Positions 6,691-12,094 of a DNA stretch of 64,000 nt are shown in pieces; position 1 is the stretch's first letter; each line of letters starts with the position of its first letter. The DNA is taken from contig NC_086097.1 in NCBI RefSeq assembly GCF_963921235.1, positions 5,766,001 through 5,830,000 on the forward strand, written 5' to 3'. Made by a program: the position numbers and the translations under genes. Source of the DNA: Mobula hypostoma. Its lineage: Eukaryota. The notes below the pieces were generated by a model. The model ran no database searches. It was not told the DNA's origin and was given only the letters and a program-made list of their open reading frames with translations.

Positions 6691-7589
6691 TTCTTTGCAC
6701 TGTAGGTCTTACAGTAATTTCAAATTAAAGGTTCAGAAGTTCAAATGTTCATCCATTATCAAAATATACAACTCTGAATTTCTTCTTTTCCAGCTAGCCA
6801 CAAAAGCAAGAAGGAAAAGAACAGCAGCACGGTCATCAAACTCCAAAACTCCCTCCCCACATAAAAAAAATGAACAAAAATGGTACAGGCAAGTCAACTC
6901 CCAAATTCCCCTCCCCACACACAAAAAAAGAGAATGATCAAGTGAAAGCAGAGAATATAAAACCACGAAGACTGATAAAAGTCCATATCCCAAAGGCAGA
7001 AAACCTAGCTAACATTCTCTGGGTACAGCGGCAGGCCTTAACCTCTTCGGTAGCAGAGCGACCACACCAGCGATCAAAAGGTAGTCTCTCCTCTCTGGCA
7101 GCAGAGCGATCCCACCAGCAAATTATTTACTATCTAGTGCAGTCAGCAATTGAAAATCGCTGCCACATAAATGTTGTTACCAATAACTGATAACTTACTG
7201 TTTAATCAACACCTGCTAAGAACATTTGAGAGTTAATGGTTTTTACAATGCATCAAGTTCAATTTTAATTGATATTGGAAATTTGAATTTCCAAATTAGC
7301 TTCAGGCATTCAAAGTGCTACATCTCTAGTGCACTCTGCAAAGATATTTTCAAACAAATTAAAATAATTATCAAAAATAATCATTTTTTAGGCAAGGACA
7401 TCCATGGATTACTTGATGTTATTCTTGCCCATCTTCCACTGTGAAAACCTTCTCAGAATCCGAATTAGGTTCAACATCACTGGCAAGTGTCATGAAATTT
7501 GTTGGTTTTTGGCAGCAGTACATTAACAATGCATAGTAATAAATACTATAAATCACAATAAGAAATATATAATTAAATTAAATAGCTTG

Positions 7590-7994
7590 TTGTTCCCTTA
7601 TTCAAGAAAGGGAGTAGAGATAGCCCAGGAAATTATAGACCAGTGAGTCTTACCTCAGTGGTTGGTAAGTTGATGGAGAAGATCCTGAGAGGCAGGATTT
7701 ATGAACATTTGGAGGAGCATAATATGATTAGGAATAGTCAGCATGGCTTTGTCAAAGGCTGGTCGTGCCTTATGAGCCTGATTGAATTTTTTGAGGATGT
7801 GACTAAATACATTGATGAAGGTAGAGCAGTGGATGTAGTGTATATGGATTACAGCAAAGCATTTGATAAGGTACCCCATGCAAGGCTTATTGAGAAAATA
7901 AGCAGGCATGGGATCCAAGGGTACTTTGCTTTGTGGATCCAGAACTGACTTGCCTACAGAAGGCAAAGAGTGGTAGTAGATGGGTCATATTCTT
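7590..7994 (+). mobile_element. CR1 RT fragment
   Basis: PLFKKGSRDSPGNYRPVSLTSVVGK...QHGF...MDYSKAFDKVPH. Confidence 0.9.
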
Positions 7995-8414
7995 GTTCAT
8001 TTGACTAATTCATTATGGGTAATATGTACAAAAGTTTGTAAAAAAAATCAGTTAATTGTATATGCCATCATGCTACCATGTGGTACGTGCGTGCTTCACT
8101 TAAAGTAAACTTGAAGTTAAACCCTTAATTTCAGACTCCTATGTTTTCGTTGAATTAATTTAATATTTTGACATTATAAAACATGACATTGGCAATGGAG
8201 TATTTCAAAAATGAACATGACACGGCTACCGACCTGTTAAAGTGGAGCAAGACTTTTGAAGTTTAAAAAACAACTTAATGCAGCAGAGCATGTGGAGACA
8301 CAGTCTTCAGAAGGGAAAACATGATCCAATATTTTTTTAAGTCTGAAGATGGAAGAATTCAGTGCTCATAAACTGTGAGTACTGGGTGATACTAGTCATT
8401 AAAAAAAATCAGAA

Positions 8415-9130
8415 ATGACAAGATAGATCAAAAAGATTGACGAGTTTGATTACACAATGAGTAATTGGCTCATGTATACTGAGCTATCTGAACAGTATTT
8501 TGAAGCAAATGACATGCGAGGACCAATTTTGTGAAGTGCATTAGGTTTTAATATATATAGTTTGATTTGAAGTTTGAATGCTCCAACCAGATCTGCAGAA
8601 GTGAGCCTTGGTGATTGTCAAAGCAATGCAGGAACATTCAGAACTAAAGCAATTGTTGGTGGCAAAATGTTTTAGATTTCAGAAGTGGAATCAAAAGGAA
8701 GGGGAGTCCACTTCAGCTTACATGGTTGAATTGAAGAAGTTGATTGAGCATTGCCAGTTCAGGGATGGGCTTAATGTTGCACTGAGAGATCATTTAGTTT
8801 GTGTAATCTTACAAGAAAGCATTCAAAAACAGCTCCTAACTGAGGGACAAAAAAAAATTTAAACAAGCAATGAAATCGCTATGTCAATGGAAATCAGAGA
8901 GACACATCTGAGTCACAGACAGGAATGAAAGTGAGCATGAACAAAATTTCAGCATTGAAACAGAAAGCTGCCTGGCCCAACAAATTGAGTTGCTGTTGTG
9001 GCAGGACCTCACATACTGTACACCAAATAAATGCAGATTTAAAATTGAAACTTGCAGAAAATGCAGCAAAGTAGATCACATACAGTACAAAGAGCATGTC
9101 AGGCACACAAATGTTACTGGACTGCACAGG
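8415..9130 (+). pseudogene. Gypsy gag, disrupted
   Basis: FRFQKWNQKEGES.SAY..ELKKL.EHCQF.DGLN.ALRD.LVC..LQESIQKQLLTE, plus two degenerate CCHC knuckles at about 8990-9090. Confidence 0.85.
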
Positions 9131-9179
9131 GAAGAGTAAAAGATAAAATCTGATACGGATGAGAGTAACACAGGATTGA

Positions 9180-9422
9180 AAACACAAAATACTCTGCAGA
9201 TGCTGGGGTCAAAGCAACACTCACAACACCCTGGAGGAACTCAGCAGGTTGGGCAGCCTACCAGCCTTCTCCTTCCCACCCTCCCCCCCATCTTCTTTAT
9301 AGGGCCTCTGCCCCTTCCCTCTTCCGTCCTGACGAAGGGTTCCGGCCCGAAACGTTGACTGATCATTTTCACGGATGCTGCCCGACCTGCTGAGTTCCTC
9401 CAGCGTGTTGTGAGTGTTGCTC
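9180..9422. mobile_element. Penelope-like insertion: inverted pLTR pair with 14-bp TSD
   Basis: taacacaggattga flanks both sides (9166-9179 and 9423-9436); about 9213-9258 is the reverse complement of about 9378-9422. Confidence 0.85.
9324..9361 (+). ncRNA. Minimal type I hammerhead ribozyme motif (Penelope-associated); best-preserved copy in the window
   Basis: ccgtc CTGACGA a gggt-tccg-gccc GAAA cg tt gactg: conserved core, stem II, palindromic ACGT stem III and stem I gtc/gac. Confidence 0.75.
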
Positions 9423-9479
9423 TAACACAGGATTGAGCAGCCTTGAGATTTACACTGTGAAAATTAACAATAGACAAGC

Positions 9480-9755
9480 AATTGGGTTACGGCAGACATG
9501 AATGACAAATTAACTAAAATGGAATACTGGGGATAAGATAACTCCTGTGGGAATGACATTTGTAACAGTGAAATACAACAACCAACAAGCCACACTGAGC
9601 TTGTATGTGGTAAAGTCAGAAGGGCCAGCATTGTGGGACATGATTGGCTGAGACAACTGCAACTTGATTGGAAATCCATCTGCAGTTTGCATGCCACATT
9701 CCCCACAATGAAGTCCACTGAAAGTGAACTATGAAAGTTACTGAATGATGCCACA
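9480..9755 (+). pseudogene. Gypsy protease region, disrupted
   Basis: ITPVGMTFVTVKYNNQQATLSLYVVK..GPALW...DWLRQLQLDWKSI. Confidence 0.7.
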
Positions 9756-9758
9756 AGC

Positions 9759-10475
9759 GTGCCCATGTCGAACACCATAAATTGTTGTCCAACAGAGGAC
9801 AAACAGTTAATGGTGCCAACCTCTGTGTCTCTGCTTGGGAAGCATATTGGACCAAGGAAGGACCATGCTGCTCAGAGGAAGCATGGAAGTGACAAAAGCA
9901 GTGGTCCGACTACAACAGTTTTTGTTGGCAACATATCTGAGAAAGCTTCTGATATGTTAATCAGGCAGTTATTTGCAAAATGTGGCTTTGTTTTATGCTG
10001 GAAGAGAATTCAAGGAGCTTCAGAAAAGTAGCAAGCTTTTGCCTTTTGTGAGATTAAAAAAGCAGAATCTATTCTGTGTGCATTAATGTTATCGTAGGAA
10101 CTTCAAGTCGGAGACAATAAACTAAACTGCTTGTAAAAGTAGAGGCAAGGACCAAAGTCCAGCTGGATGAATGGATGGTCAAAAAGACAGGAGTCAATGG
10201 AGAAACAAAAACAGAGGATTCTTCTGATGTCGTTGTGGATGAGGAAACCAAAATGAGAGATGAGTTTGTAAAGGGAGCAACAGAAGGATTAATAAGAGAA
10301 TACTCCGGTGAACTAAATAGACCTTACCAAGATCAGGATGCACAAACTAGAAGAAGAAAAAGTTGAGGGAAGTGATGGAGAGAAAGAATGGGAGTGAGTA
10401 AGAAAAAGGTGTGAAAGAGAGAAAAGATGTGAGAAAAGAAAGAAAGAGATCAAAGTAGATCCAGAAAGAGAATGG
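9759..10475 (+). pseudogene. RBM25: Processed RBM25 fragment (RRM plus part of the Arg/Glu-rich region) with stops and a frameshift
   Basis: GPTTTVFVGNISEKASDMLIRQLFAKCGFVLCWKRIQGASEK*QAFAFCE...LLVKVEARTKVQLDEW...VDEETKMRD...LIREYSGELN matches the RBM25 N-terminal RRM region as I recall it; no introns. Confidence 0.9.
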
Positions 10476-12094
10476 TTTCAAGAGCTGCCGGAACTACTTC
10501 CAGCAGTCTCGGAGTCAACTCTTACAACCACCACGGAGGCCCCAGAACCTGAAATTGTTTTCACAGCCACAAGTCTCACCTGCCAAGCAGAGTAATCCCC
10601 TTTGATAGGAACGACATTATCCCACAAGAGTAAGAATTCATTCACAGCGATTAAAACTTTAGATCTGAATAAGACCATTTAAAATTTACTATGTGTGGAT
10701 GCCAGTGTATAGTGGTTGTATTATAGATCCCAGTGTATAGTATTTCTATTATATAGTGTAGTGTGTATATAGTTGAGATGCATTCTATGTTGAGTTGGAG
10801 TTTGTAGCTAAGTAGGGAGGAGTGTTCCATATTTAATACTTTAGTAATATCTGAGTAATCTTGAGTATATATTGGTTAAGCATTCTTGATTGTTAAAATA
10901 ATTTATAACGGTTATATATAAAAAATATGTTAGTTGCATATGTCATCACGCTACCATGTGATACGTGCGCACCTCGCTTAGAGTAAACTAGATGTTACAT
11001 CCGTATTTTTGGACTCCTGTGTTTTTTTTGAATTAATTTAATGTTTTGAAGTTGCAAGACATAACACACCGCACCTGTAGAAATTTGTGAGAGATTTGGT
11101 GACATATCAAATACCTTCTATAACTTTATTATTAACTGCATTGAACCTTGTGAATATCGTTCGGATGACGGATGTGATAAGCTGCATTCAATTTGATCAA
11201 GTTTTATACAAAAAGCTTTAGTGAAAACTGGGGTCTTGGAGGTTACTATTTCAACAGTATTCAGATCCTGCAGAATGTCTGATTAAAACAGATCTGATTT
11301 GGATTCTGAACTCTCCATTTGATAGCAGGCTTTAGGTAAAGAAAGACTAACTGATCATTTATAACCCCCCAGATTTCATTTAAATATCAAAAAAAAGGTT
11401 TGCAAGTAGCAGATGCTCAAATATGCTCCAACTAAAAAGCAGTGAAGCAGTATTTTCCCCAAACATCCCAAATTTACATCAGTCCATCTTCCCTCCTTAC
11501 CCAAATGATTACTCTAACTACTTTCATTGAAAGATTCAGATGTCTCTTACTTTGATCAATGTAGACATTGTCCAGACTGTTAAAAAAGATTAAGATGAGA
11601 TTTTGTTTTGTTCCGTGTCTTCTGCCTTCCACCCATCTTGGATCTTTTATTCCATTGATCCTGAACCACGTTTTCTAGATCCAGTCATTCTGAGCACTGA
11701 TGAAAGATCAATAAACTGAAGTGTCAACACCGTTTCTTTCTTTGCAGGTGCTGCACAACCTCTTGAACAATTCATGCATTTACTATATTTTTATTGAGTG
11801 TCCAACAGCAATCATTCAAACCTTTTAAATACTGGAAACATGCACAGTGTGTAGAGTTCTGCAAATACAGTTAAGTAATTTTCGGTTGCCTTTTCCTTGC
11901 CTCATATGCCTGGATCATACTATCATAGATTTGACACAGCATAGAAGGACATTTGGTTAATGAAGTCTATGCTAGCTGCTAACAAAGCAATATCATCAGT
12001 TCTATTCTAACTCTGCCAAGGACGGTCCCAAGCCTGGCTGCTATAGGAGGAGGGTTAGACATTTAGCTTGCAACCCCATTCCATAAAAGATTTC

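Follow-up and report, generated by a model that had tools for sequence, protein, structure and literature searches.

The 64,000-nucleotide window of Mobula hypostoma DNA analysed in this study contains, at positions 7994-11066, a decayed non-autonomous long terminal repeat (LTR) retrotransposon of the Ty3/Gypsy type that carries a captured piece of mRNA from the host gene RBM25. Very probably, a Gypsy-type element acquired the spliced RBM25 mRNA by double template switching, and the chimera was then amplified in trans. We compared the element with the host gene, with its own family and with parental elements free of host sequence, and the two points at which element and host sequences are joined could be read to the base.

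The element consists, in order, of a truncated 5' LTR, a site resembling a primer-binding site (PBS), remnants of gag and protease (PR), the RBM25 piece, the end of pol, a polypurine tract (PPT) and the 3' LTR. P0125 and P0126 in the following list are Gypsy polyproteins.

7994-8188, + strand: 5' LTR without about 49 nt of its 5' end; aligns to 10870-11066
8189-8205, + strand: PBS-like site, T TGGCAATGGAG in the window and TTGGTGACAAGG in better copies
8206-9177, + strand: leader and decayed gag (capsid-like part and remnants of CCHC zinc knuckles), by DNA homology to family copies
9178-9436, + strand: nested insertion, namely the repeat 9178-9422 and the second copy of its target duplication, private to this locus within the family
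9437-9749, + strand: end of nucleocapsid (NC), protease remnant and first pol-linker codons, by homology to family copies and to P0125/P0126
9750-9756, + strand: 5' junction microhomology TGCCACA, present in parental pol and at the end of an RBM25 exon of the host
9757-10472, + strand: captured spliced fragment of RBM25 in sense orientation, by blastn and tblastn to the host gene, RBM25 protein matches and a partial RRM_1 match
10473-10662, + strand: C-terminal tail of pol (integrase C-terminal extension) and stop, contiguous with the integrase C-terminus in 14 parental fragments
10663-10809, + strand: 3' untranslated internal region, homologous in RBM25-type copies and in the parental locus L086
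10810-10822, + strand: PPT AAGTAGGGAGGAG, read in the window
10823-11066, + strand: 3' LTR, 244 nt, TG..CA

A first-pass annotation of the window had listed the LTRs, the PBS, the gag and protease region, the RBM25 sequence, the pol tail and the PPT, and all of these are present at or within a few bases of where it had placed them. The two LTRs, compared by repeat finding and alignment of the 7500-11600 region, are 77% identical over 181 aligned nt. The TGG motif of the PBS-like site starts one base past the 5' LTR; such a site directly follows the LTR end in all nine family copies shown and is a candidate primer site. The PPT adjoins the LTR start TGTT.. in five of the seven 3'-LTR starts shown, the other two being blurred by indels, and the window has the same arrangement. 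The pol tail comprises approximately 60 codons, ends in ..RHYPTRVR..QRLKL with its stop codon at 10660-10662 and resembles the C-terminus of P0126 (..RRYPVRSRRPPDRLNL). No reverse transcriptase (RT), RNase H or integrase (IN) core was found in the window element, as the first-pass annotation had also reported.

The window DNA is homologous to better family copies over 8054-9148 and again from 9425 onward. At the protein level, the gag region gave a weak PNMA match (E 0.012), and the C-terminal half of the protease alone is detectable (tblastn to P0125/P0126, E 1e-9); Pfam searches of the window open reading frames (ORFs) yielded only the RRM_1 and PNMA matches, all below threshold for these element parts. 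A deletion of approximately 100 nt at 9524/9525 has left the window protease without its D-T/S-G active site. In gag, a 14-nt target duplication (TAACACAGGATTGA; 9164-9177 and 9423-9436) brackets the nested repeat, and this insertion is absent from all other family copies compared. The inserted sequence, 9178-9422, is a very abundant interspersed repeat with an inverted repeat of approximately 44 nt that could fold as a long hairpin, and its relatives are frequent in the host RBM25 gene region. With two stops in the RBM25 frame, a frameshift, the protease deletion, the nested insertion and the truncated LTR, the window copy is dead, as had already been concluded from its stops, frameshift and diverged LTRs.

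On its left side, the element adjoins a truncated reverse-transcriptase fragment of a long interspersed nuclear element (LINE) at 7586-7993 (+ strand; RVT_1, E 1e-14). This fragment stops abruptly at 7993, and contigs of other organisms carry further LINE sequence beyond that point; therefore, a deletion or rearrangement took the rest of the LINE together with the first ~49 nt of the LTR. Because its 5' LTR is truncated, the window element shows no visible target duplication of its own.

The identification of the captured sequence as RBM25, proposed from the translation, was borne out at both the protein and DNA levels. A 76-residue translation (9801-10028) matched 237 proteins at E<=0.001, and among the 120 matches listed, every named one is RBM25, RBM25-like or an unnamed protein with an RNA recognition motif (RRM) domain. 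The best protein match among those listed is a shark 'RBM25-like' model (P0002; 76% identity, E 2e-30). A sequence search of the PDB with the RRM and linker pieces returned generic RRM matches or none, and the set searched holds no RBM25 RRM chain. Using the PWI-domain end of a full-length RBM25 protein (P0021), we located the host gene on the same contig as the window, approximately 94 Mb away on the minus strand; the matching region lies at 99.809-99.838 Mb of G000:C1 (minus), and the gene including its PWI exons at 99.79-99.84 Mb.

When 120 kb around the host gene were compared with the window by tblastn and blastn, window 9763-10442 matched six separate exons of the host gene in their genomic order. 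The identity is 79-92%, the orientation is sense, and introns are missing. Closer reading added 3-10 nt of the preceding exon at the start of the piece, the last 17 nt of the exon rich in arginine and glutamate codons (RE-rich exon; window 10448-10464) and approximately 30 nt of the exon downstream of it, which are kept in better copies and best in L077. The captured piece of approximately 0.72 kb thus joins eight host exons that are spread over approximately 29 kb, with no intron retained, which establishes the colinear exon map and the spliced origin that the first-pass annotation had suggested. The exon-derived segments in the window are as follows.

Just before 9760, + strand: 3 nt of exon '2b'
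9760-9806, + strand: 48-nt cassette exon
9807-9977, + strand: RRM and linker exons, first
9978-10035, + strand: RRM and linker exons, second
10036-10201, + strand: RRM and linker exons, third
10202 to about 10345, + strand: RRM and linker exons, fourth
To 10464, + strand: RE-rich exon with internal deletions
10465-10472, + strand: start of the next exon

The cassette exon (VSMLYTMNRCPTEGKQ) has 48 nt, or 16 codons, is in frame and has canonical splice sites in the host gene (G000:C1:99832633-99832586 minus, loci L038-L039). It is also present at the start of P0002, with 100% identity over 14 residues, and its motif is absent from the other 119 RBM25 proteins among the matches listed. The presence of this exon in a retrotransposon family indicates that it was already spliced in at the time of capture; the element therefore preserves an old RBM25 transcript with the cassette exon and provides direct evidence of the age of this isoform. 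Altogether, the RBM25 part spans about residue 60 to the RE region and, unlike the RBM25 gene, contains neither the PWI domain nor introns. Missing from the element are the last part of the exon ending in ..SQDQD, all of the 84-nt exon that follows it and part of the RE exon, and the RE-derived stretch is out of the RBM25 frame. The jump from the RRM to the Arg/Glu tract described in the first-pass annotation is therefore real, but it is an internal deletion between purine-rich repeats and not a clean skip of exons. Neither the protease-end motif nor the pol-tail motif occurs in any of the 120 listed RBM25 matches. As a separate observation, a solo-LTR-like family match (L043; G000:C1:99876648-99876890), which starts at the equivalent of window 10821, is situated upstream of the first coding exon identified for RBM25; given the abundance of the family, this position is probably a coincidence.

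The element belongs to a large family with a shared structure. A first look at the genome with the stretch 9700-10560 gave 3544 candidates, and 40 of the 40 scored places matched at 77-83% identity; the 29 loci fetched all share the layout of gag, PR, RBM25, tail and LTR. For genome-wide counts, we used 27-mers with up to 3 mismatches, each against a reversed control. The 5' junction 27-mer gave 1054 matches (62 exact), and the parental 27-mer, which runs from protease to RT at the same point, gave 2600; both controls gave 0. The junction count is far beyond chance. Among copies in which this part of the element is retained, approximately 29% are thus chimeric (1054 versus 2600). An impression from a similarity-ranked sample that RBM25-type copies outnumber the parent (25 versus 11) was overturned by these unbiased counts. 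These results support the conclusion that the element amplified as a non-autonomous family with at least 1054 junction-bearing copies, so that the junction search once proposed as a check has returned a family with a shared junction and not a single locus.

The full family LTR is approximately 244 nt long with TG..CA termini (starting TGTTGTG.. and ending ..ACATAACA) and is preceded by the PPT AAGCAGGGAGGAG. A 5-bp duplication, AATAT, flanks copy L021, the sole copy for which both outer flanks are in hand. The family occurs in two forms, with and without window 10363-10468. The form without this segment ('subtype B') forms no separate clade in a tree of the RBM25 region and looks like the product of a deletion between GAAAAGGAG repeats. 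Two pairs of copies, L007/L011 (G000:C96, approximately 1.2 Mb apart) and the pair at G000:C15 285406 and 137631, are 95-99% identical, far above the family norm, and probably arose by segmental duplication at a later time; in L011, the RBM25 part is present twice in tandem.

The lineage from which the chimera arose could be recognized on both sides of the RBM25 piece. Better family copies match Gypsy polyproteins over gag, NC and PR (L006 versus P0125 aa 11-403, E 5e-28; down to E 4e-34 for comparisons with P0125/P0126) and keep the D-T/S-G site, with Pfam protease matches that stay below the cut-off (E 0.026). The protease part of L005 is 47% identical to P0125 (E 1e-34) and 41% identical to P0126 (E 2e-30). 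Both polyproteins show the domain order PF13975, PF00078, PF17917/17919, PF17921 and PF00665, and the proteins closest to the parental element are named 'K02A2.6-like' by NCBI.

On the 5' side, we sampled 36 protease-region matches and read 260 nt downstream of each. Twenty-five continue into RBM25, all with the identical junction, whereas 11 are parental and read ..GATGATGCCACA|GCAGTGTTCAAGGATGG.. or a close variant. Nine of these 11 were placed in the RT N-terminus by tblastn (P0126 aa 243-379); L092 runs into deeper RT (aa 431-500), and L090, which gave no tblastn match, has the same parental sequence. On the 3' side, 39 tail matches were sampled, and 420 nt upstream of each were read. The sequence upstream of the tail is RBM25 in 17, the integrase C-terminus in 14, the RNase H/integrase N-terminus in 6 and RT in 2. 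The 14 integrase-to-tail fragments read ..WRRHIDQL..VREKKGVQSCQNHFLQS.. without a break, indicating that the tail is the true end of pol. The joins of RT or RNase H/IN sequences to the tail indicate that the family also made several internal-deletion derivatives. These derivatives, which lack host sequence, are L049 and L078 (RT to tail) and L050, L065, L069, L073, L084 and L085 (RNase H/IN N-terminus to tail).

Comparison of RBM25-type and parental copies defined both junctions. On the 5' side, their homology stops exactly at TGCCACA. The 11 parental fragments read GATGA(TGCCACA)GCAGTG, or ..GATGATGCCACA|GCAGTGTTC.., with the shared bases in parentheses; the host reads ACTCC(TGCCACA)ACT and then the cassette exon, the exon end being ..ACTCCTGCCACAACT|GTAAGT in the gene; and the chimera reads GATGA(TGCCACA)ACTGTCTCC. 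On the 3' side, homology resumes at ..GAGAAGAAAGGTGTCC... Host exon 8 reads ..GAAAAG(GAGAAGAAA)AGGG, the parent reads ..TTA(GAGAAGAAA)GGTGTCCAG, and the chimera switches between host and parent there. Host mRNA and parental pol thus share microhomologies of 7 nt (TGCCACA) and 9 nt (GAGAAGAAA) at the two junctions, both of which lie inside exons. The protease regions of parental and RBM25-type copies are equally similar to that of L005 (82-85%), which fits a parent and a chimera that were active at the same time.

Two candidates for the parent were rejected. L046 (G000:C45:27883900-27890100) belongs to a different lineage, with 67-73% identity in short patches only, and L086 is 5'-truncated and thus not a full-length parent. 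L046 itself is a younger K02A2.6-like Gypsy element with an open pol frame of 858 codons, and a PR-RT query from P0125 found 74 places in the genome at E<=1e-157, several of them without stops.

We then read the frames of individual copies over the 201 nt spanning the 5' junction in 25 copies. The pol frame is open in 11 of the 25, with a mean of 1.08 stops, whereas the second and third frames are open in 0/25 each, with means of 3.68 and 3.04 stops. In individual copies, uninterrupted reading from the protease via ..KVLDDATTVSMLNTMNRCPTEDKQ.. into the frame of RBM25 covers 206 aa in L005, 197 aa in L007 and 170 aa in L003. The protease active site reads MELDTGSAVSVIP in L014, with the variants MELDTSSAVSVIP in L005 and MQFDTGSAVSVIP in L003. 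At the 3' junction, the mean number of stops is 2.2 in the pol frame and 4.5 and 3.6 in the others, and several copies read open from the RE-derived stretch into ..QERHYPARVRKPP. These frames suggest that a Gag-PR-RRM fusion ORF, which the first-pass annotation had raised as a possibility, is likely to be ancestral; a single gag-PR-RBM25-tail ORF in the founder is also likely, although not proven. No junction-spanning ORF was found in other species by protein search.

To estimate the age and mode of decay of the family, 30 copies were aligned to 576 nt of the host RBM25 coding sequence. Their mean identity is 87.3% to the host and 83.5% to one another. Private differences per base are evenly distributed over the codon positions (0.095, 0.093 and 0.098), indicating neutral decay. 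A base other than that of the host is common to at least 60% of the copies at 22 sites; 20 of these differences are synonymous (19 at third positions) and 2 nonsynonymous. Their assignment to a branch would take outgroup DNA, and they are mute on selection on the RRM inside the element. The 19 sites among 192 third positions are about what silent evolution of the host gene would add during ~9.5% decay of the copies, and amplification soon after capture is the simplest reading of the shared differences. The tree is star-like, with terminal branches of median 0.096, a host branch of 0.038 and 23 of 28 inner branches unsupported; the sole tight pair is the local duplication L007/L011. LTR pairs within copies are 77-91% identical (Kimura two-parameter distance 0.10-0.28), the value of 91% coming from only 45 aligned nt. 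If elasmobranch substitution rates are as slow as we assume from uncertain figures, the family would date back on the order of 100 million years.

The family is also present in other organisms. By a 31-mer look-up, the stretch was found, in falling shares, in sequencing runs of organisms A to G. Contigs of organisms B, C, D and E, compared with 7800-11300 at >=88% likeness, cover 30 of 30 bins, and the family is thus present in these four. Contigs of organism B (97-98%) cover 7991-8700, bridge the end of the nested insertion (9388-9553) and lead from the 3' LTR into the flank (11036-11300), indicating that the same insertion, nested repeat included, is shared with B. Those of organism D bridge the 3' LTR and its flank (~92%) and the protease-RBM25 junction (9585-9864; ~92%). 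From these contig matches, it appears that two of the other organisms carry the same insertion.

Taken together, these data suggest the following course of events. A Ty3/Gypsy-type retrotransposon (gag-PR-RT-RNaseH-IN) would have co-packaged a spliced RBM25 mRNA. During minus-strand synthesis, RT would have worked through the 3' LTR, the PPT and the final ~60 pol codons, switched at the 9-nt match GAGAAGAAA into RBM25 exon 8 and copied the mRNA back via the RE-rich exon, the RRM exons and the 48-nt cassette exon. At the 7-nt match TGCCACA, it would then have switched back into pol just past the protease and continued through gag to the PBS. The product would have kept all cis signals, gag and PR and lost RT, RNase H and integrase, with RBM25 in frame behind the protease. 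Its translation would have yielded a fusion protein. Since such a chimera has no RT, RNase H or integrase, its spread presumably used enzymes supplied by the parent: in a single ancient burst, the parental family would have mobilised it in trans until it numbered about 1000 copies or more, after which the copies decayed neutrally. The window copy is one such fossil; in addition, part of its 5' LTR and its protease active site have been lost, and the nested repeat has been inserted into it. The template switching postulated in the first-pass annotation accords with the microhomologies at both junctions, and the amplification that it foresaw accords with the shared junction in 25 of 25 sampled copies.

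Several observations weigh against this scenario. End joining of DNA could also produce junctions with the same microhomologies. For the parent, the sequences in hand are no more than fragments of 341 nt and ~500 nt and the 5'-truncated locus L086, none of which extends from LTR to LTR. Breakpoints within the purine-rich part of the RBM25 piece are ambiguous, and at the 3' junction, the pol frame is open in 2 of 15 copies and the other two frames in 1 and 0, which is only a weak enrichment.

The first of these points leads to the strongest of the other explanations, in which the chimera was formed in the chromosome: RBM25 DNA, either a cDNA or a retrocopy, became part of an element with a deletion through microhomology-mediated end joining or ectopic recombination, and transcription and amplification came later. 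Internal rearrangement is indeed common in the family, as the RT-tail (2/39) and RNase H/IN-N-tail (6/39) joins illustrate. However, such derivatives are equally expected from template jumps of RT, and joining at the DNA level needs a separate intronless RBM25 DNA and two precise joins in sense orientation that replace pol, whereas template switching, which is documented experimentally and comparatively (Tan et al., PMC5131818), gives everything in one step. We therefore regard a chimera made at the DNA level as improbable.

Capture by read-through and splicing, in which an element in an RBM25 intron contributed a donor site that was spliced to RBM25 exons and later recombination restored the 3' end, is considerably less probable still. 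At first sight, the homology runs from the first base of the cassette exon to the last base of the RE exon, and the junctions could be taken for splice sites; this idea was rejected because both lie inside exons. Three further bases (ACT) and TGCCACA come from the exon upstream of the cassette exon, approximately 30 nt of the exon that follows the RE exon are present as well (most clearly in L077), and the parent has no GT at the breakpoint (..CCACA|GCAGTG..).

It is equally far-fetched that the RBM25-derived copies are, or include, functional host genes encoding domesticated RBM25-like RRM proteins. Most of the widely shared differences (20/22) are synonymous, and the best match is a model named 'RBM25-like'; however, a synonymous excess is predicted by the constrained evolution of the host gene since capture, and P0002 maps to the intron-bearing host gene and not to an element copy. 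Moreover, private changes are neutral, 29 of the 30 copies contain in-frame stops, and the remaining one has a 3-base deletion. A LINE-driven processed RBM25 pseudogene that landed in one LTR element has practically no chance of being the source, even though LINE fragments are abundant here and one lies at 7586-7993, because no poly-A, A-run or bracketing direct repeat was seen around the RBM25 piece in the window (as the first-pass annotation had noted), the piece ends inside coding exons, pol is replaced and not interrupted, and the same junction occurs 1054 times instead of at a single locus.

A bolder reading is that the captured RRM was more than cargo. A Gag-PR-RRM polyprotein, with a frame open from gag as far as the natural stop of pol, may have bound the element's own RNA in cis or engaged the splicing machinery, or a thousand sense copies of RBM25 exons, the 16-codon cassette exon among them, may have fed small-RNA or decoy effects on a dosage-sensitive splicing regulator. 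We consider this unlikely, but if it is true, the RRM fusion could have conferred the advantage by which a defective element came to make up about a third of the family copies.

The capture of host mRNA by LTR elements is already known. Tan et al. (2016, PMC5131818) describe LTR-mediated retroposition, in which partial intronless mRNA replaces internal ORFs between LTRs, without poly-A and with possible secondary retroposition, and microsimilarity occurs at the switch points (median 6 bp, 25/29 junctions). The element described here resembles the cases presented there in its chimeric structure, its microsimilarities (7 and 9 nt), and its lack of poly-A and of a target duplication of the captured piece. 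Those cases are young, of single or few copies and from fly, mosquito, zebrafish, chicken and mammals, whereas the present family has at least 1054 copies with ~10% decay and, unlike them, gag-PR in frame with the captured domain. The maize element Bs1, which according to the same source contains fragments of three cellular genes and has 1-5 copies per Zea species (PMC5131818), is likewise a non-autonomous LTR element with captured host exons and a hybrid ORF; it drew on three donor genes, whereas the present family drew on one, resides in a vertebrate and numbers about a thousand copies.

Crocodilian endogenous retroviruses with KIT-ligand (9 copies) or nectin3 (6 copies), reported by Chong et al. 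(2014, PMC4299795), are another case in which vertebrate retroelements took up a host mRNA and multiplied together with it. As reported there, they carry a whole ORF under purifying selection, one of them without loss of a viral domain, whereas the present element is of the Gypsy type and has a partial gene in place of pol that decays neutrally. Gene-fragment captures by maize LTR elements, reported as 425 elements from at least 189 captures and thus ~2 per capture (Baucom et al. 2009, PMC2774510), are similar in that LTR elements carry host gene fragments genome-wide; here, a single capture corresponds to ~1000 copies. In the literature on RBM25 together with shark, retrotransposon, Gypsy or transposable element, we found no report of this element, and an entry in a repeat library may exist. 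Acutely transforming retroviruses are also defective and helper-dependent, with spliced host exons that replace pol in frame behind gag. A model for their capture of host sequences was reportedly presented by Swain and Coffin in 1992. These viruses involve proviral insertion and read-through and are exogenous and short-lived, whereas microhomology switches and germ-line spread would be the features of the present family.

The copy number reached from one capture is thus unusual: the published comparison cases, as far as they are described in these sources, have 1-9 copies per capture, whereas one vertebrate capture here gave rise to at least a thousand. This indicates that a transduced chimera without enzymes of its own can compete well within its family. 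With both switch points at base resolution and the parental and donor sequences in hand, the family provides a clean natural example of the mechanism. For annotation, it implies that hundreds of RRM-coding fragments will resemble 'RBM25-like' genes or pseudogenes in shark and ray genomes. Whether the captured RRM was cargo or more, the family preserves a splice isoform of an elasmobranch RBM25 as a dated molecular fossil.

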